This document shows positions 230 to 53,595 of a DNA stretch of 64,000 nt, in pieces (the first letter of the stretch is position 1; every line of letters starts with the position of its first letter). The translations under genes and the position numbers were made by a program. Source of the DNA: Candidatus Woesearchaeota archaeon. GTDB taxonomy: Archaea > Nanobdellota > Nanobdellia > Woesearchaeales > UBA11576. The notes beneath the pieces were generated by a model. The model had not been told where the DNA came from, ran no database searches, and was given only the letters and a program-made list of their open reading frames with translations. The stretch covers positions 17,464-81,463 of the forward strand of contig JABGYH010000006.1 in the NCBI GenBank assembly GCA_018675335.1, read 5' to 3'.

Positions 230-2758
230 TTAATTAAATACATTATCAGTAATTACATAATCAACTCCTGAAAATATGAGATCTAGAGTAGTATTAATAT
301 TATTTGACGTATATGTGTGAATTTTAAATCCTTCGTTTTTCAAAATTTTAATAAGTTCAGGATTTAAATTTAAATAATTAAAATCAAATCCCAAAATTCC
401 CAAATTCTTAAGCTGTTTAAGTTTAAACTTATTTAAGTCAAATCTTATATTTTCATTCCAATAAATAAGTTTTATATCTGAATTTAATTCATGAACTTTC
501 AATAAATAATCAAGATTAGTAGATTCTAAAAATATTTTATCAGAAAGCCCATTAATTTCAATTAAGTGTACTAATTTTTTTAAAAAAGTAAGAGGTTGAC
601 AACCAAAATCTTTCAAATCTAAATGATAATTAAGTTTCCTACCCATTTTAATAAATACTTCCTCAAGAAGAGGAATTGACTGATTAGAAATAGTTCCATC
701 AAGATTTTTTATTTTAATTTTTTTCAAATTACTCAAATTCAAATCACAAACATTTCCAGCACTATTTGTCTTATCTTGTAATAAATAATCATGAAATAAA
801 ATTATAGTTCCATCCTGTAAAGAAGTAATATCAATTTCAACATTAATAAATCCACGCTCAAATGCTTTTTCTATTGCAAGTAACGAATTTTCGGGATACA
901 ATGATAATAAACCCCTATGACCAAACAATTTATTTAATAATAACAAATTTTTAAATCGTTTACAAAGATTAGTTTTTAAAAATAAATTTATATTTGATTT
1001 TTTTACCAATACAGGGTTAGATTCTGAAGGATCTTGACGCAAATCAAAAACTAATTCGAGTTTATTTTCAAAACTATAAACTTTTTTAATAGTGTTGTTT
1101 TGATTTATCACCATAAATCCCCCTCCATAAGGTTGCATCAAAACTTGACAAGACTCATATTGATCACTAAACATACTATGATTTTTTTTAATTAAAAAAG
1201 AAAATGAATTAGAAAAATAATTATCACTTAATAAACTTAAAATTGTTGGAATAATATCTAATTGACTATATTTATCAGTTATAATCCTATTTTTAAAAAA
1301 AGTTTCATTTTTTGATTTTGGAGGAACTAATAAAAAACTTGTAACAAACGAATCTTCATAAAAAGAAATTTCATTACTATAAATATTGTGTCGCCCAATA
1401 GGAAATGAATGATCTCCAAATATCATTAAATAACTATTATTTTCATATCTCATAAATCGTTTTTTAAAAACATTCAAATGATTATCTTGAACGACTAACG
1501 AATTAATATATTCTTCATACTTATTTTGTGCAGGATTGAATTTATAAACTGAAGAATATTCAGCTATATTCTTAAACGGGTAATGATGTTCATCTAAAGC
1601 CACATAAACAAATAATTTTTGACCTTCAATATAATTTTGTTCCAAATAATCAAATAATTTATCATATACTACATCATCCGGATATCCCCACTCAGTATTT
1701 TTTTCTTGCCCAGTTAAAAATTTGTCAAACAAAACATAATCAAACCCTATTTTTTTCATAAAAATTCCCGTTTTTTGAAAATTTAAATCATCTGCACTAA
1801 AAAAATAAGTAGTATAACCTGCATCCTTCAATATTTGAGGCAAACAAATTTTATTAAATTCAGATAATCTATCAACATAAAATGCGGCATTATTACTATA
1901 AATTCCACAAAGTATATTTTCTTGAGCACGTAACGTTTGAATACTATTGCTATAAAATTGAGGAAAAAATACTCCTTCTTTTGAAATATTAGTCATAACA
2001 GGAACATAATTTCCCACATATGTTTTATCAAACATGGTAACATTAGGCATGATATCCAACCCGTTAAGAGATTCTAATTGCACAAAAAAAATATGTTCAT
2101 TATGTTTTTGAGAAAAATTAAAATTACCAAAAACCTCCAAGTAATTTAAATTATATAATTCTTCTTTATTGGCTAAATTTTGCAAATAATCTCTACTAGA
2201 AACCACCAAAGGAACTGGGAAAAAAAAGATTGAACTTATTAAATTTACAAAAATTAAAAAAACAAATAAAATTATAATTAAATTTTTCTTTTTAAATATC
2301 TGAATCAAATATTTTTCTTTTAACAAATTTTTAATAAGTTTAATTCCTGATCGAAAAGTAAAATAAATTAAAAAAAATAATCCTAAAATAAAAATAATCA
2401 AATATGAAGTACCAACAGTATTTTTTAATGTTAACAGTGAATAAAAACCACTATCAAAAACAAAAGATAAGTCAATTAAATTCCCCGTATATAAATAATA
2501 AAAAAGAAATAATATTGACAGTACCCAATATGACAAATATAATCCCCATAAAAAAAAAGTTAAAAATTTAAATTTAGTTCCAAACAACAAACAACTTAGT
2601 AAAATAAATATAAATAAAAAAAGATGAAACAAAGTTGATAAAAATATATCTAAAATTATAAATTCCAACATATTTTGTATTAGTGGTAAAAAAACAAACA
2701 ATATAATTAACGGAAATAACTCCCCCCAATTATGTTTTAACATTTGCATAAATTTCAT
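230..2758 (-). CDS. Membrane-anchored LtaS-like (sulfatase/alkaline-phosphatase superfamily) phosphoglycerol-transferase domain fused to a C-terminal glycerophosphodiester phosphodiesterase (GDPD) domain
   Basis: About 185 aa of N-terminal TM helices. Then an LtaS-like core with 'FFVQLESLNG' (the metal-binding Glu motif of LtaS 'IQLESF') and the 'FGDHSFP' Asp/His metal motif. C-terminal 'FGHRGLLSLYPENSLLAIEKAFERGFINVEIDITSLQDGTIILFHD' is a canonical GDPD HRG...PEN...E.D...HD signature. Confidence 0.6.
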   Translation of the reverse strand: MKFMQMLKHNWGELFPLIILFVFLPLIQNMLEFIILDIFLSTLFHLFLFIFILLSCLLFGTKFKFLTFFLWGLYLSYWVLSILFLFYYLYTGNLIDLSFVFDSGFYSLLTLKNTVGTSYLIIFILGLFFLIYFTFRSGIKLIKNLLKEKYLIQIFKKKNLIIILFVFLIFVNLISSIFFFPVPLVVSSRDYLQNLANKEELYNLNYLEVFGNFNFSQKHNEHIFFVQLESLNGLDIMPNVTMFDKTYVGNYVPVMTNISKEGVFFPQFYSNSIQTLRAQENILCGIYSNNAAFYVDRLSEFNKICLPQILKDAGYTTYFFSADDLNFQKTGIFMKKIGFDYVLFDKFLTGQEKNTEWGYPDDVVYDKLFDYLEQNYIEGQKLFVYVALDEHHYPFKNIAEYSSVYKFNPAQNKYEEYINSLVVQDNHLNVFKKRFMRYENNSYLMIFGDHSFPIGRHNIYSNEISFYEDSFVTSFLLVPPKSKNETFFKNRIITDKYSQLDIIPTILSLLSDNYFSNSFSFLIKKNHSMFSDQYESCQVLMQPYGGGFMVINQNNTIKKVYSFENKLELVFDLRQDPSESNPVLVKKSNINLFLKTNLCKRFKNLLLLNKLFGHRGLLSLYPENSLLAIEKAFERGFINVEIDITSLQDGTIILFHDYLLQDKTNSAGNVCDLNLSNLKKIKIKNLDGTISNQSIPLLEEVFIKMGRKLNYHLDLKDFGCQPLTFLKKLVHLIEINGLSDKIFLESTNLDYLLKVHELNSDIKLIYWNENIRFDLNKFKLKQLKNLGILGFDFNYLNLNPELIKILKNEGFKIHTYTSNNINTTLDLIFSGVDYVITDNVFN

Positions 2759-5028
2759 TTTTTAATCAATTCACCAAGTTTTTTTCTAAAAATAAATACC
2801 AAAATAAACGAAAATAAACTAAAAAAAAACAATCCAATTCTTAATGCTCTTAATTTATATTCAAAATAAACTTTGTAAACTCCTGGAGTGTCAACTTTTA
2901 CAGACATAAAACTTGGACTAATTTCGTAAATTTCAGATTCAGTTCCATTAACATACGCGCGCCATTCAGGATGCGCACTAACTTTTAACATAATAAAACA
3001 ACTAGAATCAGTTACATTAACTAAAGTTTCATAATATCCTCGCCTAACAACTTCAGTTCCACCAATAACAGATCCACAATTTTTAGGAACTGATTTAAAT
3101 GTTTGAAAAAAATGGAGTGCATCTACTGTTGTTAATTCATGTGTTTTTAAATTTTTAACATCAATATTAAAACTATTATCAGTTATAACAACTCGTTTTC
3201 TATCCTCACTTAACAATGATTGATAATTTTTCATCAAAACAGATCGTTCAGGGGGAATAATTAAAAAGTTCAAATCAATATGTTCAGTTATACTAGTTAA
3301 TTCATTCAACAAACGAGGTTTTAAAATTAGGATATGTTCATTAGTCGAAGGAAGTACACTAAAATACCACATAAGAAAAATAGGCCTGGAATCACCTAAA
3401 GAAGAATCAATCGCAATAGAACTTTGAACTAAATCAAAATAAGAAGAAGACGTTTTATTAAAAATAACATAGTTTTTATTTTTAAAATAAAAATCAGTCA
3501 AATTAGTTCTATTAGAATTTGAAATAAAATAGCCTAAATTAAATAAATTATACAGATCAGTTTTATTTGAGAATGAAATAAATGGTTTATTCACATAAAA
3601 AATACTCAAAGAATCATGTCCTCCTATTCCACCACTAAAAAAAGACGGTTTATTAGAATAAATTGGAATGCTATTAGGAATCATAGAATATGAACTAAAA
3701 TTTTCAAAAATTACTCGAGAATTAGGCATTAAATTTAACTCATTCATGATTTGATTAAGATCCGGTTCAGACCCCACATCATGAAAAGTAACAACGTTTC
3801 CCACATAATTAGCAGATGTATCTATAACAACAGGTGCCAAAAAAAAAACACAAACTAATAATACAATCAATAAATTAATTTGTTCATACCGGTGAAGCCT
3901 AAATTTAGAAGAAATCAAATCAATCAAAAAACCAAATGCGACTCCGATAAGAATTATTGAAAAAAAATGAAGCAAACTAATAAACCTAAATAATGGAATT
4001 GCACTAACACCAGGAATAAAATTAATTAAATTTCCAAATAATGCACGACCAATTAAAAAAAAGAAAGATAAACAAAACCCTGCCAAAATAAATTTATGTC
4101 TATCTTCTTGACGAAAATGAAAAGAAATCAAAATTCCCAAAACAGCAAAAAAAGTTAAAAAAGGCAATCTCCCAAAATCTAAAAAATTACCTGAAAAAAA
4201 ATGAAAAAATGATGAAACCCCATAACCATCAATACGATCAAAAGATTTATGTGAAAATTTACCATCATTCATATAATCCCCATAAAAATATATTGGAATC
4301 AAAAGAAATGCCACAAAACAGAAAGTACAAAAAGCTAAAAAAAGAATTTTCTTTAATTTTAGTTTATTAAATTTCAAAAAAAGAGCAGGCACAGCAGTTA
4401 AAGCAGCCATAAACCCAGATAAAAAATGGGTTAAAAAAGTAAGAGATAAAAAAACAGATACTTTAAAAAAAGTAATTTCATTTTTACAATTTTTAATAAA
4501 AAAAAATCGGTAAATAAACGCAATTGTAAGTGGAAAAAAAATTAACACCATCACTTGAGAGTATATACCATATTTAAAAAAAGCTACAATCTCTAATCCA
4601 AATCCCTGATAAGAAGAAAGCATTGTTGAGACCAATGCACTAAATAATGAACTAATTTGAGAAAATTCCATCAACCTCATACTTTTATAAATAACTAAAG
4701 GGAATAACCCAAAAGATAAAAAGATCGATAACTTAAATAAAAATAACAAATCTAAATGAGTGAATACATATATTAAACCAATAAAAAAATAAGATAATGG
4801 TGCATAAAAATTAAACAAAGGAAACCCCAAATTATAATCTGGACTCCACCAATTAAGAGTATGAGTTTGAATTAAATCTACCGTATTAATAACTAAATTA
4901 AAATGACTTACTCCATCGCCCCCCGGAGGAAGCCCTCGCTGCAATAAAGGAGATAAAAAAAATAAATTAAAAAAAATAATAATTCCTAAAATAATATACA
5001 GCGATGTTTTGTGTAATTCTTTCATCAA
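2755..5028 (-). CDS. Large polytopic membrane protein with C-terminal extracytoplasmic domain; GT-C-like glycosyltransferase candidate (YfhO/ArnT/PMT-like architecture). Not AglB: no WWDYG motif
   Basis: At least 12 predicted TM helices across the first ~400 aa, then a ~350 aa soluble domain. Its start overlaps the stop of the LtaS-GDPD gene by 4 nt, indicating an operon. Assignment is by architecture only. Confidence 0.35.
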   Translation of the reverse strand: MMKELHKTSLYIILGIIIFFNLFFLSPLLQRGLPPGGDGVSHFNLVINTVDLIQTHTLNWWSPDYNLGFPLFNFYAPLSYFFIGLIYVFTHLDLLFLFKLSIFLSFGLFPLVIYKSMRLMEFSQISSLFSALVSTMLSSYQGFGLEIVAFFKYGIYSQVMVLIFFPLTIAFIYRFFFIKNCKNEITFFKVSVFLSLTFLTHFLSGFMAALTAVPALFLKFNKLKLKKILFLAFCTFCFVAFLLIPIYFYGDYMNDGKFSHKSFDRIDGYGVSSFFHFFSGNFLDFGRLPFLTFFAVLGILISFHFRQEDRHKFILAGFCLSFFFLIGRALFGNLINFIPGVSAIPLFRFISLLHFFSIILIGVAFGFLIDLISSKFRLHRYEQINLLIVLLVCVFFLAPVVIDTSANYVGNVVTFHDVGSEPDLNQIMNELNLMPNSRVIFENFSSYSMIPNSIPIYSNKPSFFSGGIGGHDSLSIFYVNKPFISFSNKTDLYNLFNLGYFISNSNRTNLTDFYFKNKNYVIFNKTSSSYFDLVQSSIAIDSSLGDSRPIFLMWYFSVLPSTNEHILILKPRLLNELTSITEHIDLNFLIIPPERSVLMKNYQSLLSEDRKRVVITDNSFNIDVKNLKTHELTTVDALHFFQTFKSVPKNCGSVIGGTEVVRRGYYETLVNVTDSSCFIMLKVSAHPEWRAYVNGTESEIYEISPSFMSVKVDTPGVYKVYFEYKLRALRIGLFFFSLFSFILVFIFRKKLGELIKK

Positions 5029-5098
5029 AAATTTAAAAATAAAAGATATTTAAATAGTTTTAGAATCATTTAAATAGGAAAACAAGTATATCCAAATT

Positions 5099-5812
5099 AT
5101 GAAAATATCCATAGTAATTCCCGCATATAATGAAGAAAAAAGAATAGGAAATTCATTAAAAAAAATAATCAAATTTTGCAATAAAAATTTGACAGATTAT
5201 GAATTAATCATAGTGAATGACTTCTCAAAAGACAATACATTAGAAATAATAAACAAAAACAAAAACAAAAAAACAAAAGTTCTAAAAAATAAAAAAAATA
5301 AAGGAAAAGGTTATACTGTGAAAAGAGGTATTTTAAATGCAAAATACCCTCTAGTCCTATTTTCAGATAGTGATCTTGCAACACCTATTGAAGAAATTTT
5401 AAAAATGCTCAAATACATCCCAAAATATGATATTATTATTGCATCCAGAAACCTAAAAAAGTCCGATGTAAGAGTCAAACAATCTTGGTATCGTCAAATA
5501 ATGGGTAAAACATTTCCAATTATTGTTAATATGCTAGCAGTTCCAGGAATTCGTGATACTCAATGTGGATTTAAATTATTCAAAACAGATCTAGCAAAAA
5601 AAATTGTATCAAAGCAAACAATTAATAGATGGGCTTTTGATGTAGAATTATTATTTATCGCAAGAAAAATGAATCTAAAAATAAAAGAAGTCCCAATTAT
5701 TTGGATCGATAAAGAAGGAAGCACAATAACCAACCCCCTCCGAGACGCAACAAAAATGCTAAAAGATGTTATAAAAATCCAATTAAATAATTTCAAAGGA
5801 AAATATGATTAA
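5099..5812 (+). CDS. GT2 family polyprenyl-phosphate sugar synthase (Dpm1/GtrB/CsbB-like)
   Basis: 'ISIVIPAYNEE...IVNDFSKDNT...FSDSDLATP...TQCGFKLF' gives GT2 DxD/DAD-type motifs. Length 237 aa. Confidence 0.7.
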   Translation: MKISIVIPAYNEEKRIGNSLKKIIKFCNKNLTDYELIIVNDFSKDNTLEIINKNKNKKTKVLKNKKNKGKGYTVKRGILNAKYPLVLFSDSDLATPIEEILKMLKYIPKYDIIIASRNLKKSDVRVKQSWYRQIMGKTFPIIVNMLAVPGIRDTQCGFKLFKTDLAKKIVSKQTINRWAFDVELLFIARKMNLKIKEVPIIWIDKEGSTITNPLRDATKMLKDVIKIQLNNFKGKYD

Positions 5813-11817: not shown

Positions 11818-12147
11818 TTATTCTGTAGGATTTTCAGTTCCTTCAACTGCTTCTGGTTCTACTGGTGCAGGTTCTAAAACCGCTTCAGCTTCTACAGGTT
11901 GTTCTGCTGGTAATATCTCTAAACTTACTTCTGCATCTTTAGGCTCTACTGGTGCAGGCTCTGGCGCAGGTTGAATTATTTCTAATGAAACCTTTGCATC
12001 ACCTTTATCAGACGGACCTACGATATTAACATCAGTAGGTGCCTTACTAGCCATCTCTAATACTGTCACTGTACCAACAACTGAAACAACAAGTGTAAGA
12101 ACCAGCAAAATCAAAATAGTTTTTTTCGAAACGTCATCTTTTGCCAT
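11818..12147 (-). CDS. Small Pro/Glu/Ala/Val-rich repeat surface protein with N-terminal TM, paralogous N-terminus to the neighbour
   Basis: 'MAKDDVSKKTILILLVLTLVVSVVG' resembles the neighbour's 'EEVSNKTLAILLVAAIVVSLGG'. Internal repeat 'DAKVSLEIIQPAPEPAPVEP' / 'DAEVSLEILPAEQPVEAEA'. Perfect SD 'AAAGGAGGTAAGTAAT ATG'. GC-rich. Confidence 0.4.
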   Translation of the reverse strand: MAKDDVSKKTILILLVLTLVVSVVGTVTVLEMASKAPTDVNIVGPSDKGDAKVSLEIIQPAPEPAPVEPKDAEVSLEILPAEQPVEAEAVLEPAPVEPEAVEGTENPTE

Positions 12148-21176: not shown

Positions 21177-23231
21177 CTATTCTGGACCATGTTCATTAAC
21201 AAAATTAACTCCTGCACTTTCAACACTTATTGGTGCTTGTTCCACAACTTCCGAAGCTTCACTTTCTTGCATTTCATAAGGGCAAGTTTCATGTTTGCCA
21301 GGAATATATCCATGATCAGGACATACACTAAATGTAGGAGTTATCGTAAAGTATGGCAACCTAAAATTATACGCAATTCTTTTTACTAATTGTTTACAAG
21401 TTTCCGCATCACTAACTCGCTCGCCCAGGAATGCATGAAAAACAGTTCCCCCAGTATACGCGGCTTGCAAATCATCTTGCATTTCTAATGCTTCAAAAAT
21501 ATCTCGCGTATAATCTACAGGCAATTGAGTTGAATTAGTATAATATGGTGTATCTTCTCCAGCACTAAGAATATCTGGAAATCGCTTCTTATCTGCTTTT
21601 GCCAATCTATAACTGGTACCTTCTGCAGGAGTTGCTTCTAAATTGTATAAATTTCCGGTTTCTTCTTGAAATTCAGATAATTTTGACTTCATAAAATGAA
21701 TTATTTCTTTAGCCATAATTACTCCTTCTTTACTAGCAATATTTTTACCAATAAAGTTTAACAAAGATTCATTCATCCCATTAAGACCAATTGTTGCAAA
21801 GTGATTATTAAACGTGCCTAAATATCTTTTAGTGAATGGAAATAAACCTTTATCCAAACTACTTGAAACTACTTTTCTTTTAATTTCTAAAGATTCCTTT
21901 GCCAGTTCCATAAGTCGCGCAAGTCTTTCAAAATAATCTTCTTTTGAACTTGCAAGATAACCTACTCGAGCAAGATTCATAGTAACAACGCCAATACTCC
22001 CAGTCATTTCTGCAGCACCAAAAAGTCCACCACCTTTATTTCTCAAATCTCTCAGATCCATTTGTAATCTACAACACATACTGCGCACATCACCAGGATT
22101 TAATTCAGAATTAATAAAGTTTTGAAAATAAGGAATCCCATACTTTGCAGTCATTTCAAAAAGAAGAGTTGCATTTTCACTATCCCAATCAAAATCTTCA
22201 GTTATGTTATATGTTGGAATTGGAAATGTAAATATTCTCCCACTAGCATCCCCTTCAATCATACACTCCATAAATGCTTTGTTAATCAAATCCATTTCTT
22301 TTTGGCAATCACCAAAAGTAAAATCTGCTTCTTTTCCACCAATAATTGCAGGATTATTTTTTAAGTCAGGAGGACAAACCCAATCAAGTGTTAAATTAAT
22401 AAATGGAGTTTGTGTTCCCCATCTGCTAGGTGTTGCAATATTAAATAAGAATCTCTGCATTTGTTGTTTAACTTGTTTATAAGTTAAGTTATCAACTTTA
22501 ATAAATGGTGCAAGATATGTATCAAACGAAGAAAATGCTTGTGCACCCGCCCACTCATTTTGTAACGTACCTAAGAAATTTACCATCTGACCAATAATTG
22601 TATCAAAATGTTTTGGAGGAACTGTTTGCAATTTTCCCGCAACACCACCAAATCCTTCTGCAATTAATTGTCTTAAACTCCAACCAGCACAATATCCACT
22701 AAACATGGATAAGTCATGAATATGAAAATCACCCTCAATATGTGAGTCTCGAATTTCTTTTGGATAAATATGATTCAACCAATAATTTGCAGTTATTTTT
22801 CCTGAAATATTAAGAATAAGGCCGCCAATCGAATATCCAACATTAGCATTTTCATTTACTCTCCAATCACTTCGACTCAAATATTCATTCATTGTTTCTT
22901 CAACATTAATCAAAACTTCACTATCTTCACGAGATAATCTTCGTTTTTCTCTGTACAAAATAAATGACTTTGAAACATCCGCATGACCTTCTTCAATTAG
23001 AACTTTTTCAATTAAATCTTGAATATTTTCAACTGTCGGCAGGGACCCACCTTTAAAAAAAATATTAAGAATCGCAGTAACTCTTTTTGTTAAAGCTTTT
23101 GCTAAATCATAATTATCTAGATTATTAGCCTTCATAGATTTAAAAATAGCACCAGTTATCTTTTCCTCATCAAATAGAACTAATTCACCATCTCTTTTTC
23201 TTACTCGTCGAATTTCTTTTAGATAATCCAT
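21177..23231 (-). CDS. nrdD: Anaerobic ribonucleoside-triphosphate reductase catalytic subunit (class III), C-terminally truncated relative to canonical NrdD: lacks the glycyl-radical motif
   Basis: N-terminal ATP-cone ('VRKRDGELVLFDEEKITGAIFKSM'). Long NrdD core. C-terminus has half a Zn-ribbon 'CPDHGY...CPY' then an acidic tail, with no RVxGY motif. Confidence 0.9.
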   Translation of the reverse strand: MDYLKEIRRVRKRDGELVLFDEEKITGAIFKSMKANNLDNYDLAKALTKRVTAILNIFFKGGSLPTVENIQDLIEKVLIEEGHADVSKSFILYREKRRLSREDSEVLINVEETMNEYLSRSDWRVNENANVGYSIGGLILNISGKITANYWLNHIYPKEIRDSHIEGDFHIHDLSMFSGYCAGWSLRQLIAEGFGGVAGKLQTVPPKHFDTIIGQMVNFLGTLQNEWAGAQAFSSFDTYLAPFIKVDNLTYKQVKQQMQRFLFNIATPSRWGTQTPFINLTLDWVCPPDLKNNPAIIGGKEADFTFGDCQKEMDLINKAFMECMIEGDASGRIFTFPIPTYNITEDFDWDSENATLLFEMTAKYGIPYFQNFINSELNPGDVRSMCCRLQMDLRDLRNKGGGLFGAAEMTGSIGVVTMNLARVGYLASSKEDYFERLARLMELAKESLEIKRKVVSSSLDKGLFPFTKRYLGTFNNHFATIGLNGMNESLLNFIGKNIASKEGVIMAKEIIHFMKSKLSEFQEETGNLYNLEATPAEGTSYRLAKADKKRFPDILSAGEDTPYYTNSTQLPVDYTRDIFEALEMQDDLQAAYTGGTVFHAFLGERVSDAETCKQLVKRIAYNFRLPYFTITPTFSVCPDHGYIPGKHETCPYEMQESEASEVVEQAPISVESAGVNFVNEHGPE

Positions 23232-23320
23232 ACTAACAAACCTCTTTTCATCACCTTAATTAATTTTAAATCTTTGAGCACTTAAAACTTGAGCTCAATT
23301 AACAAAAACTCGCCTTAAAT

Positions 23321-23761
23321 TCAAGAGAGTTTATTCAATTCCTTCTCAAAATCATCAATATTTGCAAACTCAAGATAAATTGATGCAAATCGCATATATC
23401 CAACTTTATCAATTTTCTTTAGTCGCTTTAAAACTGCTCGCCCGATGATTTTTGAAGCAATTTCATTCGCATCTTTTTTACGTATCTCAGATTCAATCTC
23501 CAAAGCAGCCTTTTCCAAAACTTCTGTTGAAACAGATCTTTTTTCACAAGCTGTTTGAAATCCTTTGAGTACTTTGTTGCGATCAAACTCTTCGCGAGTT
23601 CCGTCACGTTTTATTACCATTAATGTTGCAAGTTCTGCCCGTTCATAACTCGTAAATCGTCTTTCACATTTAAGACACTCCCGTCTTCTTCGAGTGTAGT
23701 CTTCATTATCTCTTTTATCAACAACTTTTGTATCTGATTGATTACAATACGGACATAACAT
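23321..23761 (-). CDS. nrdR: Transcriptional repressor NrdR (Zn-ribbon plus ATP-cone)
   Basis: 'MLCPYCNQSDTKVVDKRDNEDYTRRRRECLKCERRFTSYE' is the canonical NrdR N-terminal Zn-ribbon. An ATP-cone follows. Confidence 0.85.
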   Translation of the reverse strand: MLCPYCNQSDTKVVDKRDNEDYTRRRRECLKCERRFTSYERAELATLMVIKRDGTREEFDRNKVLKGFQTACEKRSVSTEVLEKAALEIESEIRKKDANEIASKIIGRAVLKRLKKIDKVGYMRFASIYLEFANIDDFEKELNKLS

Positions 23762-25826: not shown

Positions 25827-26408
25827 TCAAGTCAAACGAAGACTCGCAGAAACTCCAAATGGTTTTAGTTTAACAGAACATATTTTATCATCATATTGTT
25901 GATTAAGTTCACTTAATTCTCGCTCAAATTTAGCCTGAACTCGACCATATGCCCTATTCTTAATAATTGAATTACTTATTCTTTGTACGGGTTTTATCAA
26001 CAACTCAAAAGCAATTCCTCCCAAACCTAAATTAACTGCAACATTCGCTGAGTACTCCAAATTAGAACTTACCACATAGCTCACAACACCCCCAACAAGC
26101 GCAGTTAACCCTCCAGCAACAATCAAACCACCAATTCTAGTTAAATTACCATAATTTGATTGCGCCCCATTAACAGAATCACCATATTCAGACTTAGTCT
26201 TCATCATCAACCCAACATATGAACGAATATAATCCCCAAAAACTGCACGCAATGGGCTTTTTTGAAGATCCATACGATTTAACATATCATCAACCTGTTC
26301 ACTAAAAGAATATTCAGACCTAGACACAATATCATCCAAAGAAACTGCTTGTTTACGAAATAACGACTGATGAACTTGTCTCCTCGCAGCACTTAACGTT
26401 TTCTCCAT
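25827..26408 (-). CDS. Hypothetical protein with Gly-rich membrane segments
   Basis: 'GGLIVAGGLTALVGGVVSYVVS' and 'LGLGGIAFELLIKP'. Start uncertain; probably 'MEKTLSAARRQ'. Confidence 0.3.
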   Translation of the reverse strand: MEKTLSAARRQVHQSLFRKQAVSLDDIVSRSEYSFSEQVDDMLNRMDLQKSPLRAVFGDYIRSYVGLMMKTKSEYGDSVNGAQSNYGNLTRIGGLIVAGGLTALVGGVVSYVVSSNLEYSANVAVNLGLGGIAFELLIKPVQRISNSIIKNRAYGRVQAKFERELSELNQQYDDKICSVKLKPFGVSASLRLT

Positions 26409-26899
26409 AAAATAAGTATCCAGCAAGTAATTTATAAATATAATTATACTCCAGTAAAGACAATAACATCCAAAAAACAAAAAAATTAACCCATTTAAAA
26501 TTAAAATTTTTCATTAAAATCACGCAATATTATAAACAAACATTTTTAAACATCAAAATCAATAAAGAACCTGGGTGGAAAAATGGTTAGACCTAATCTA
26601 GAATGGGAACGGTATAGATATAGGCTACCAAAATCTGGCGCAGAAGTTGAAATTATTCGCGAAATAGTAATGAACGATGACGACTTGAATTTTATGGATT
26701 TATCTCGCAAAAATTAAAAAATAATTAAACTTCGATAACTACGACAAAAATTTACAGCAAAATTTAAGCAATTCTAACCACTTTTGGTAACAAATATAGC
26801 GTTAGCCTTAAAAAAAATAAATTCTAACCCCTTTTAACGCAAATTCCATTAAAATAGTTTAAAATCTAGTTCTACTAACTAACTATTGGGGCAAAGAAT

Positions 26900-38950: not shown

Positions 38951-39247
38951 TTATTGTTTTTTCTTTGTATGTTTTGGTACGTGCGCAGCAGAATGTGTTT
39001 GGTGCGCAGGATGTGTTGAATGAATTTGATGATTAGGAGATTGCATTTTATCATTTACTTGTTTTAATTCATGTTTAATTTCCACAAGTAATTGAGTAAG
39101 TTGTTTATATTCTTTAAATCTTAAATATAACAAAATTAAGTATACTCCAAAGATTCCCCCAATTAACCCACTTAGTACTTTAGTAAAAAGTCCTATAGTT
39201 CTTGTTAACGGCTCAAACATTGCACCAAAAATTCCTGATGGATCCAT
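38951..39247 (-). CDS. Small membrane protein with His-rich C-terminus
   Basis: One TM ('LIGGIFGVYLILLYL'). C-terminus 'HQIHSTHPAHQTHSAAHVPKHTKKKQ'. Confidence 0.35.
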   Translation of the reverse strand: MDPSGIFGAMFEPLTRTIGLFTKVLSGLIGGIFGVYLILLYLRFKEYKQLTQLLVEIKHELKQVNDKMQSPNHQIHSTHPAHQTHSAAHVPKHTKKKQ

Positions 39248-51441: not shown

Positions 51442-51856
51442 ATTTTAATTTTTTAATTTTCACTTATTAAATTTGTATTAACTCTTCCCCCGCGACAAAA
51501 AGAGACATATGTTTAGTAGTCATACGTCTTAAAATAGTTTCAGTAGAAAAATCCAGAAAAAATATTAAACAAACCGAAAAATATTCAAATAACAATTAGC
51601 TAAATCACCCCATCTAACTTAGTCTTTAAAAAAAATTCAATTTAATAATATAATTATAATACTAATCCTATAAATTTTCAAAAAATATCTAAAAAATATA
51701 ATGTCAAAAACTATGCATTTTATATATCACCTCTTTTTTCCACAGTGAGCTTCCAAAGAGAAAACAAAAATAAAAAAAATAAATTTAACCTGAATCTAGA
51801 CGAGAAAAAAATAATAAATCATCAAAAAGTCTAAGATTTCATGGAGGGCGAAGAAA

Positions 51857-52168
51857 ATGAATCCATTTACAAAATATATAGCATTACCTGCAGCAGCAAT
51901 TGCATTAGCCGCTACAGCTTATTTAACACAAGAAAGAACTGCAATGGCGCATGCACCAAAAAACCCAACTGCAACATATCAAGCAAAAGGTCCTGAATAT
52001 AAAAATTCACAAGAAATTAGTTTTGGACCAACCTTAGTAACTAGAACTGGCTTAATCCCCCTTCAAGAATCAATTCATTTTGAACCAACATTAGTAACTC
52101 GAAATGGATTAGTTGAAATTACAGAAGCAGAAGTTGCAAAAATCGAAGCGAGTAGTAGAGATATTTAA
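51857..52168 (+). CDS. Small secreted protein with internal repeat
   Basis: Signal peptide 'MNPFTKYIALPAAAIALAATAYL'. Repeat 'GPTLVTRTGLIPLQE' / 'EPTLVTRNGLVEITE'. RBS GGAGGG. Confidence 0.35.
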   Translation: MNPFTKYIALPAAAIALAATAYLTQERTAMAHAPKNPTATYQAKGPEYKNSQEISFGPTLVTRTGLIPLQESIHFEPTLVTRNGLVEITEAEVAKIEASSRDI

Positions 52169-52260
52169 ATTTTAAATTTATTTAATTTTTTAAAATATTA
52201 AATAATTTTTTATTTTTTTTAAATTTTTCTAAATTAACTAAACTCTAACAAAAAATAAAT

Positions 52261-52407
52261 GCCCCTGCCGGGAAAATCGACAAACAACCAATTCTAGTTA
52301 TTATATTTTCGAACCCGGGTTACAAGATGTTTACAAAATAAATCAAACAAACATTTAATTCATATTGCCGCAATCTCGCGTCCTATCCAGGCTAGACTAC
52401 AGGGGCA
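52261..52407 (-). tRNA. tRNA, probably tRNA-Arg(GCG), apparently with two introns (canonical 37/38 intron ~39 nt; second ~34 nt intron in or just 3' of the T-loop)
   Basis: Hand-folded minus strand. Acceptor GCCCCUG/CAGGGGC (7/7). D-stem GUCU/GGAC with AGCCUGGAUA loop. Anticodon stem CGAGA/UCUUG with loop UUGCGG. T-stem CCGGG/CCCGG (5/5) with UUCGAAA, interrupted by an insert before the 3' T-stem strand. Discriminator A. No encoded CCA. Confidence 0.45.
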
Positions 52408-52608
52408 ATTTTATTAATTATCAAATCAAATAAATTAATTATTTAAAAACCTTCTCCCCTGCATTAAACAAATTAAAATAGCCAAAATCTAAAAAAAATA
52501 ACTCATTTAAGCAAAATATTCAAAATAATCACTAAAAAAGTAAAAAATTCTCCAATTAATCATATAACCCCCTAAACCATACCTCTAACTTGTTTGGAGG
52601 GCAAAAAA

Positions 52609-52863
52609 ATGGCAAAAAACCTAGAAAAAAAAGTAGAAGAAACTGTCACCTCAAGAGGAAGCACACGTTATCCAGATGATGACCGAAGAGTTCCAGATGC
52701 AGAACCATTTGAAGCAATAACATACACAGGACCTAGTTATCCTGACGACGATAGAAGAACGCCCAACAGAACTGTGTTTAAACAAGGAGCACATATTTAC
52801 TCAGAGGGAAATTGGTATAGCTCAGGAGAAGAATACTGCGGACCTAAATACCCCGATGACTAA
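52609..52863 (+). CDS. Small protein with YPDDDRR repeats
   Basis: 'STRYPDDDRRVPD', 'PSYPDDDRRTPN' and C-terminal 'KYPDD'. GGAGGG RBS 8 nt upstream of the ATG (the ORF track used an upstream TTG). Confidence 0.3.
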   Translation: MAKNLEKKVEETVTSRGSTRYPDDDRRVPDAEPFEAITYTGPSYPDDDRRTPNRTVFKQGAHIYSEGNWYSSGEEYCGPKYPDD

Positions 52864-52926
52864 CAAAATATAACAACTACAAATAAAGAACCAGGCATAA
52901 AGAAAACAATACTAAAAAATTATTTT

Positions 52927-53595
52927 TTATTTCTTTATAGCAATAGTACTAGGACTTCTTCTACCAACGCAAGGACCATCAATTACTTCAAAACCAACAG
53001 TTTTTAATCCTTTGCGAACAGCACTAGCGCAACTATAAGTCATTAATCGTCCGCCTTTTTTTAATACGCGATACACTTGAGAAAAAACTTCTTCAGTCCA
53101 AAGTTCGGGACATTTTTTTGGCGAAAACGGATCAAAATATACTAAATCAAAACTATTTTTTTCTAAATCAATAATACTTTTACAAGCATCATCAACAATT
53201 AATTTTATTTTGCAATTTTCAAATGTAACAACTCGTTCTCGATCAGAAAGAGTTACCAATTTTTTAAAAAATGAATAGCACTTAAAATTACTTTCAACAT
53301 TTAAAATTTCATTTAAAATTTTTTCATCATTTTCAAGTCCAACAATCTCAATTTTTGCACCTTTAAAATAATCTATTGCACATGCAGAATTATAACCTAA
53401 ACCAAAACAAAAGTCAAGAATTTTAACTTCAGAAAATCCCTCAAGTTTTGATGGTTCAACAAACTTTTTTAACGCTTCTTCTTCTGCACCAGTATTACTA
53501 TGATATGTTTCATCATACTCAGAATTATGAAAAGTTATTGACCCATCATTTGTTTTTATTTTTTTAAGATCCATTTTATAATCAAATATATTCAA
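52927..53595 (-). CDS. MnmC2-like (DUF752) SAM-dependent methyltransferase, stand-alone
   Basis: 'VYFDPFSPKKCPELWTEEVF' matches the MnmC methyltransferase-domain DxFxPxxNPxLW motif. Gly-rich 'LDFCFGLGYN' SAM loop. Confidence 0.55.
   Translation of the reverse strand: MNIFDYKMDLKKIKTNDGSITFHNSEYDETYHSNTGAEEEALKKFVEPSKLEGFSEVKILDFCFGLGYNSACAIDYFKGAKIEIVGLENDEKILNEILNVESNFKCYSFFKKLVTLSDRERVVTFENCKIKLIVDDACKSIIDLEKNSFDLVYFDPFSPKKCPELWTEEVFSQVYRVLKKGGRLMTYSCASAVRKGLKTVGFEVIDGPCVGRRSPSTIAIKK

Follow-up and report, generated by a model that had tools for sequence, protein, structure and literature searches.

Archaeal tRNA genes can carry one to three introns each, and position 59/60, within the T-loop, is an already documented intron site (PMC3239211). 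In ARMAN-2 (Candidatus Micrarchaeum), for example, pre-tRNA-Cys(GCA) bears a 59/60 intron and pre-tRNA-Pro(GGG) bears introns at both 53/54 and 59/60 (Fujishima et al. 2011, PMC3239211). The splicing endonuclease (EndA) of ARMAN-2, which is of the epsilon2 type, excises a 59/60 intron in vitro (PMC3239211). Multi-intron tRNA genes are likewise described from Thermoproteales and other Crenarchaeota (Sugahara et al. 2007, 2008, as cited in PMC4090602 and PMC3239211), where one to three bulge-helix-bulge (BHB) introns occupy canonical and non-canonical positions of a gene and intron content varies between related genomes. Among DPANN archaea, an alpha4-type EndA with an L3 loop is associated with increased tRNA gene disruption, and incomplete predicted tRNA sets have been attributed to disrupted genes that escape detection (Kaneta et al. 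2018, PMC5829648). That survey took in one Woesearchaeota genome, and the open-access literature that we searched yielded no other treatment of disrupted tRNAs in Woesearchaeota.

We examined a 64-kb stretch of DNA, hereafter the window, which contains a 147-nt locus on its minus strand. Judging from the sequence, this locus is very probably a functional two-intron tRNA-Arg(GCG) gene that is spliced at 37/38 (39 nt) and 59/60 (34 nt). The ARMAN-2 genes are similar in several respects: a DPANN host, an intron exactly at 59/60 with a BHB formed from T-loop nucleotides, multiple introns per gene, and genes that default tRNA finders miss. The present gene differs in belonging to Woesearchaeota rather than Micrarchaeota and in pairing the T-loop intron with a canonical 37/38 intron. 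Relative to ARMAN-2 tRNA-Cys, its 59/60 intron is also longer (34 versus 13 nt) and adopts a near-strict hBHBh' arrangement instead of a relaxed hBH. The mixture of canonical and non-canonical BHB introns recalls Crenarchaeota; those are TACK hosts with an (alpha-beta)2 EndA carrying a Crenarchaea-specific loop, whereas the gene described here lies in an AT-rich DPANN genome. Intron 1 by itself is indistinguishable from canonical archaeal 37/38 introns, with anticodon pairing in a 4-bp helix, bulges of 3 nt, and G37|N and N|A38 as the cleavage sites; the second intron is what sets the gene as a whole apart from them. Split and permuted tRNA genes (Nanoarchaeum equitans, Caldivirga, Thermofilum; PMC3218864) join their pieces by the same BHB and EndA logic, but the pieces here are colinear within one 147-nt transcription unit, and neither trans-splicing nor permutation is needed. 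Multi-intron tRNAs and the 59/60 site are thus established, and what is modestly new is an orthologous series with intron turnover at one Woesearchaeota locus.

Host, anatomy and detection of the gene

The gene belongs to a marine archaeon of Candidatus Woesearchaeota (DPANN), represented by a MAG. A 222-aa ORF adjoining the tRNA encodes an MnmC-family methyltransferase that is identical over 215 aa, the extent of the database entry, to a Candidatus Woesearchaeota MAG protein (NCBI tag HN587_04275); the next relatives share 57% identity or less. The gene context is archaeal and includes an ATP-dependent DNA ligase, Elp3, RsmB/NOL1, FmrO, L11, Spt5, and FtsZ, with ArgRS and HisRS farther off. 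This host, together with the 59/60 introns documented in ARMAN-2 (PMC3239211), agrees with the expectation in the original prediction that such introns occur in DPANN lineages. The locus is present in a JGI assembly from Saanich Inlet (200 m) and in two Logan assemblies, each built from a different SRA run. Because the tRNA region is 100% identical in these three independent assemblies, it is not an assembly artefact. Elsewhere in the window (21177-23761, minus strand), a gene for an NrdR-like repressor (Zn-ribbon and ATP-cone, 146 aa) lies directly upstream of one for the anaerobic ribonucleotide reductase NrdD. NrdR is typically bacterial, and the two genes may form a regulatory pair of bacterial type within this DPANN genome.

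The minus strand encodes tRNA-Arg(GCG) as a 147-nt precursor at 52260-52406, discriminator included, with G1 at 52406, C72 at 52261, and A73 at 52260. These limits follow from ARAGORN runs on spliced constructs. The original prediction had found the right locus in placing the gene at 52261-52407; its coordinates were shifted by one base, and the gene occupies the minus strand. The plus strand of 52261-52407 reads GCCCCTG...CAGGGGCA, and its reverse complement reads GCCCCTGTAGTCTAGCCTGGATAGGACGCGAGATTGCGG..., the sequence of an ordinary 5' half of a tRNA; this assigns the gene to the minus strand. The two strands look alike at the termini because the acceptor ends are palindrome-like. As predicted, a 7-bp acceptor stem (GCCCCTG/CAGGGGC) and a 5-bp T-stem (CCGGG/CCCGG) bracket the locus. 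No CCA is encoded at the 3' end of the gene.

Exon 1 (52368-52406) comprises the 5' strand of the acceptor stem, the D-arm, the 5' strand of the anticodon stem, and the loop as far as G37, with the anticodon GCG at 52369-52371. Intron 1 (52329-52367) spans 39 nt at the canonical 37/38 position, as delimited by an ARAGORN call in intron mode (-i), BHB measurement, and folding. Exon 2 (52308-52328) holds A38, the 3' strand of the anticodon stem, a 4-nt variable loop, the 5' strand of the T-stem, and U54-A59. Intron 2 (52274-52307) spans 34 nt at the non-canonical 59/60 position, and exon 3 (52261-52273) supplies U60 and the 3' strands of the T-stem and acceptor stem. All three exons were delimited with the ARAGORN constructs; the BHB enumeration adds support for exon 2, and the compensatory changes seen in the T-stem and in the acceptor stem do so for exon 3. 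The exons are colinear and contiguous within the 147 nt, which rules out a split or permuted gene. GC content is 61% in the exons and 18% and 24% in the two introns, against 23-32% in the DNA around the gene and about 29% in the surrounding genome. Directly 3' of the discriminator, the minus strand carries a T-rich run, TTTATTTTTT (52250-52259), which is a probable archaeal oligo-T termination signal; T-rich stretches likewise follow two related genes described below (L075 and L030). Nothing in the inserts points to a group I or group II self-splicing intron, since they measure 39 and 34 nt, against the hundreds of nucleotides of a ribozyme core, and Rfam returned no intron match at E ≤ 5 or E ≤ 10.

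Standard tools return nothing for this gene. ARAGORN found no tRNA gene in the whole 64-kb window in default or intron (-i) mode, and Rfam gave no tRNA match at the gathering threshold, at E ≤ 5 for the whole window, or at E ≤ 10 for a 271-nt slice. Such blanks are uninformative for multi-intron genes and are not evidence against one. When the 34-nt T-loop insert alone was deleted, the ARAGORN intron search, blank on the raw window, called tRNA-Arg(GCG) with a 39-nt intron at 37/38. Deletion of both inserts gave a 74-nt cloverleaf, again called tRNA-Arg(GCG), with a 7-bp acceptor stem, a 4-bp D-stem, a 5-bp anticodon stem, a 4-nt variable loop, and a 5-bp T-stem. A cloverleaf was obtained only with both the 39 nt after position 37 and the 34 nt in the T-loop taken out, which is what the original prediction had derived by hand folding. 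With ARAGORN and Rfam silent at the locus, a CGY-decoding tRNA would be scored as missing in analyses of MAG completeness or codon usage. The locus can thus serve as a worked example of the undetected disrupted tRNA genes proposed for DPANN by Kaneta et al. 2018 (PMC5829648). Other GC islands in the window were considered as hidden RNA genes, and none looks like one: those at 38980-39010 and 11937-11975 are intergenic and, read by eye, appear to be parts of short unannotated minus-strand ORFs, and that at 26087-26118 lies inside a 217-aa ORF (25827-26480, minus strand).

Predicted splice junctions

BHB motifs were assessed against the 3-4-3 geometry, a 4-bp helix (H) between two 3-nt bulges. 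In the canonical case, bases 1 and 2 of the anticodon take part in this helix, paired with the intron (PMC4090602). Intron 1 forms a strict hBHBh' in which all four pairs of H (UUGC/GUAA) are present, the bulges are GG|C and AC|A, h is 6 bp, and h' is 2 bp followed by a U.U mismatch and an 11-bp hairpin. Intron 2 retains three of four pairs in H (UUCG/CGAU, one U.U), has bulges AA|A and UU|U, uses the 5-bp T-stem as h, and has an h' of 3 bp followed by an 8-bp hairpin. The motif at 59/60 is therefore nearly strict, not strongly relaxed. The two junctions of the original prediction, one canonical and one in the T-loop, thus both carry a BHB. Among 20,000 shuffled introns, the observed BHB quality was matched by 0.24% for intron 1 and 2.0% for intron 2, so that the intron 2 control taken alone corresponds to a p value of about 0.02. 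Inspection of the introns revealed no RUGAUGA or CUGA boxes of a C/D-box sRNA. As to intron mobility, the one notable match to either intron in the window (19/20 to the intron 2 hairpin, at 26124-26143) falls in a Gly/Ala-rich membrane segment of the 25827-26480 ORF and was judged to be chance.

The position of the second junction was approached from two directions. Of eight registers scanned for intron 2, 59/60 alone combines a BHB with a T-loop of 7 nt (UUCGAAU). Position 59/60 is presumably also a split point in N. equitans. In an unbiased enumeration, we listed 114 candidate 3-4-3 BHBs in the precursor, removed one or two at a time to generate 2,032 constructs, and passed these through ARAGORN and a product-length filter. 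The enumeration without the length filter was rejected as too permissive, as ARAGORN accepted long variable arms. With the filter, three constructs of the 2,032 yielded a tRNA of standard length, and all three use the 34-nt 59/60 intron. Two of them tie for the top score of 11.0: one is tRNA-Arg(GCG), obtained by removal of the 39-nt 37/38 intron (H 4/4), and the other is a tRNA-Ala call that uses a shifted, 41-nt variant of that intron (H 3/4). In a nearest-neighbor model, the double-BHB fold is predicted at -40.0 kcal/mol, about 10.7 kcal/mol above the minimum free energy (MFE) fold at -50.7 kcal/mol. As modeled, thermodynamics alone does not favor the BHB folds, and for this reason the 59/60 assignment rests mainly on comparative data.

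We infer the maturation pathway, including its enzymes, from established archaeal tRNA-splicing biology. The 147-nt precursor would be transcribed, with termination probably at the oligo-T run downstream of the gene. The central helix of each junction, 4 bp long, would arise from base pairing between four exon nucleotides (U32-C35 for intron 1, U54-G57 for intron 2) and the intron's 3' end, and would lie between two 3-nt bulges. EndA would then cut past the second nucleotide of each bulge. Ligation of all three exons by an RtcB-type enzyme would yield a 74-nt tRNA with the T-loop UUCGAAU, to which CCA would afterwards be added. Neither EndA (PF01974, PF02778) nor RtcB was matched among 40 window ORFs (direct Pfam search) or among the remaining genes of L072 (precomputed Pfam). 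A broad-specificity endonuclease, which the original prediction had drawn from introns of this kind, would be plausible.

Orthologous genes and the variable island

When a 19-mer of exon 1 was used to scan a genome collection, most matches were intronless tRNA-Arg(GCG) genes of CPR bacteria; only two archaeal loci (L016 and L030) were retrieved, neither of which is syntenic with the window. The L016 gene is intronless and differs from the spliced product by 1 nt, in the variable loop; it shares the T-loop UUCGAAU, is identical to exon 1 over all 39 nt, and scores 62.9 bits on Rfam RF00005. The L030 gene, from a Nanobdellati MAG, has the canonical intron only (29 nt) and scores 50.0 bits on the same model. 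A metagenome scan with a 34-mer of exon 1 gave no matches, and a second with an anticodon-arm pattern that required an intron gave 13, all of them chance matches in GC-rich coding DNA. As a separate observation, the contig of L016 (CAZPXC010000020.1) is labelled Methanosarcinales, yet has a GC content of 44% and a tRNA-Arg(GCG) 1 nt away from the Woesearchaeota gene; the bin may be mis-assigned.

Syntenic orthologues were found by walking the contigs of MnmC homologues, all of which are Woesearchaeota-like and keep the synteny ATPase-Elp3-FmrO-RsmB-MnmC...LTD. In these Woesearchaeota, an orthologous tRNA-Arg(GCG) gene sits a short way downstream of MnmC with zero, one, or two introns. It is intronless in L078 (9563-9638) and L088 (7349-7422), has a 21-nt canonical intron in L082 (6830-6923), and has a single 26-nt D-loop intron in L085 (about 2177-2277). 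Two further types combine a D-loop intron with a 59/60 intron, of 27 and 43 nt in L075-77 (L075, 7717-7860, MAG GCA_018659545.1) and of 15 and 45 nt in L089/90 (L089, about 4990-5125, MAG GCA_013331125.1), alongside the window with its 39-nt 37/38 and 34-nt 59/60 introns. The D-loop introns (26, 27, and 15 nt) lie at three different positions. The series suggests that introns have turned over rapidly at this single locus. At 2177-2277 of L085/L086, ARAGORN in intron mode reports a tRNA-Pro(CGG) containing an intron of 24 nt; when the BHB is used as the guide and the 26-nt D-loop intron is removed instead, the product is tRNA-Arg(GCG), and the tRNA-Pro call is a mis-annotation caused by the non-canonical intron.

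What the orthologous introns keep is geometry, not sequence, as is characteristic of BHB introns. No sequence relationship links the three 59/60 introns (34 nt in the window, 43 nt in L075, and 45 nt in L089); in each, the exon UUCG pairs with the intron (CGAU, CGUA, and CGGA, respectively), the bulges are AA|N and NN|U, and the outer helix is the T-stem. The canonical introns end in GUAAAC|A in the window and GCAAAC|A in L082 and L030, for a consensus of GYAAAC|A. After splicing, ARAGORN called all nine genes tRNA-Arg(GCG). When these spliced sequences are aligned, pairing holds in 98.4% of stem cells, and double-sided (compensatory) changes occur in 12 of the 21 pairs, including T-stem and acceptor pairs that straddle introns. 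None of 500 shuffles reached the observed covariation, and slid controls paired at 58% or less. This pattern indicates that the spliced product is probably under purifying selection, in which case the interrupted genes would be functional.

The tRNA gene lies in the region from MnmC to the gene for an LTD-domain protein (about 51450-52930), a variable island whose content differs from relative to relative. Its counterparts contain Fumble and TrmB in L075, Bro-N and two NTase/HEPN pairs in L078, GGDEF in L082, and RHH/PIN in L088; toxin-antitoxin pairs are among the genes found there. The island may represent a tRNA-adjacent integration hotspot. In the window, the tRNA gene is flanked by two plus-strand ORFs, one of 103 aa (51857-52168) with a repeated PTLVTR-NGL motif and one of 84 aa (52609-52863) with a repeated YPDDDRR motif. 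The two share the ribosome-binding context GGAGGGC(G/A)AA(G/A)AAAATG, with an A-rich spacer of 6-7 nt (51843-51859 and 52596-52611); GGAGGGC occurs three times in the window, counting both strands. The original prediction had noted this near-identical context, which stands, and had read into it a history of local duplication or integration, of which the duplication is not supported: the translations, compared by eye, have no apparent similarity, neither ORF has a Pfam match, and the RBS motif alone is shared.

Competing readings and wider implications

The reading nearest to our own retains the two-intron tRNA-Arg gene and moves the cut within the T-loop region, to 60/61 (leaving UUCGAAA), to 58/59, or to a shifted U55-A58/UCGA helix with a relaxed 4-nt bulge. 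The MFE fold does use this 4-bp UCGA/UCGA helix, which at a predicted -41.9 kcal/mol is 1.9 kcal/mol better than the 59/60 register, and removal of the 34 nt at 60/61 likewise leaves a cloverleaf that ARAGORN accepts. Neither of the adjacent registers, however, supports a central helix (0 of 4 pairs at 60/61 and 1 of 4 at 58/59). Position 60, moreover, is U in all nine orthologues, three of them intronless, and this invariance speaks against a cut at 60/61. The shifted helix, if cut strictly, would leave a 9-nt T-loop, and hand inspection of L075 finds no UCGA partner, so only the 59/60 register fits that orthologue. We therefore consider a cut at another T-loop junction improbable. The original prediction had allowed the second intron to lie inside or after the T-loop; the register scan and the invariant U60 place it inside, at 59/60, and speak against the latter option.

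Still less probable, to our minds, is a decaying tRNA pseudogene, in which the two AT-rich inserts would be unremoved insertions or integration scars. The silence of standard tools and the position of the gene in a variable island speak for it, but the exons are intact, with exon 1 matching that of a distant archaeon at 39 of 39 nt, and every stem pairs. Both inserts, moreover, sit in proper BHB geometry, which orthologues with introns at the same sites keep despite complete sequence turnover, and the compensatory stem changes across introns suggest purifying selection on the spliced product. A third reading takes the locus for a GC-rich palindrome that arose by chance in AT-rich surroundings, or for some element other than a tRNA gene (a terminator, attachment site, or split-tRNA piece, for example). 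The ends of the locus do form an inverted repeat that looks alike on both strands. Against this reading, the four cloverleaf arms, the anticodon loop, the D-loop GG, and UUCGAAU are all present in order, the product is nearly identical to bona fide tRNA-Arg genes, and the exons are colinear at one locus, which leaves no room for a split or permuted gene. Such a chance or non-tRNA origin is effectively refuted. A tRNA-Arg(GCG) gene with one canonical and one T-loop intron, as originally predicted, best accounts for the ARAGORN constructs, the BHB at both junctions, and the orthologues with T-loop introns at the same site.

This two-intron gene reveals no new mechanism and is of use chiefly for annotation and for DPANN tRNA biology. 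With introns at 37/38, at 59/60, and at three D-loop sites, the orthologue series suggests that intron turnover of the kind described in Thermoproteales also operates in Woesearchaeota, and it offers a compact natural substrate set for exploring the specificity of DPANN splicing endonucleases. A bolder and rather doubtful extension would treat the tRNA-Arg(GCG) gene beside MnmC as a natural experiment in the gain and loss of DPANN BHB introns, in which the 59/60 intron has been retained or repeatedly re-acquired. The MnmC neighbors of the Woesearchaeota orthologues that bear a 59/60 intron are only 52-57% identical to that of the window, and second introns have appeared at 37/38 and at three different D-loop sites. 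If such genomes encode only a homotetrameric alpha4-type EndA, enzymes of this kind would routinely process D-loop and T-loop introns. Were the natural-experiment reading true, it would suggest a selected role for the T-loop intron, for example in protecting a tRNA gene that borders an integration-prone variable island.

Two observations concern the bacterial genes retrieved with exon 1. Bacteria normally decode CGY with tRNA-Arg(ACG->ICG). More than 50 CPR/Patescibacteria genomes (L001-L058) nevertheless carry an intronless tRNA-Arg with a GCG anticodon, whose D-stem and anticodon arm (ATAGGACGCGAGATTGCGG) are identical to those of the archaeal gene. In one of the CPR loci (L026, about 1470-1600, minus strand), a tRNA-Arg truncated in the T-arm is followed about 45 nt later by a second copy that is complete and slightly divergent, an arrangement that might reflect tandem duplication or the scar of an integration.
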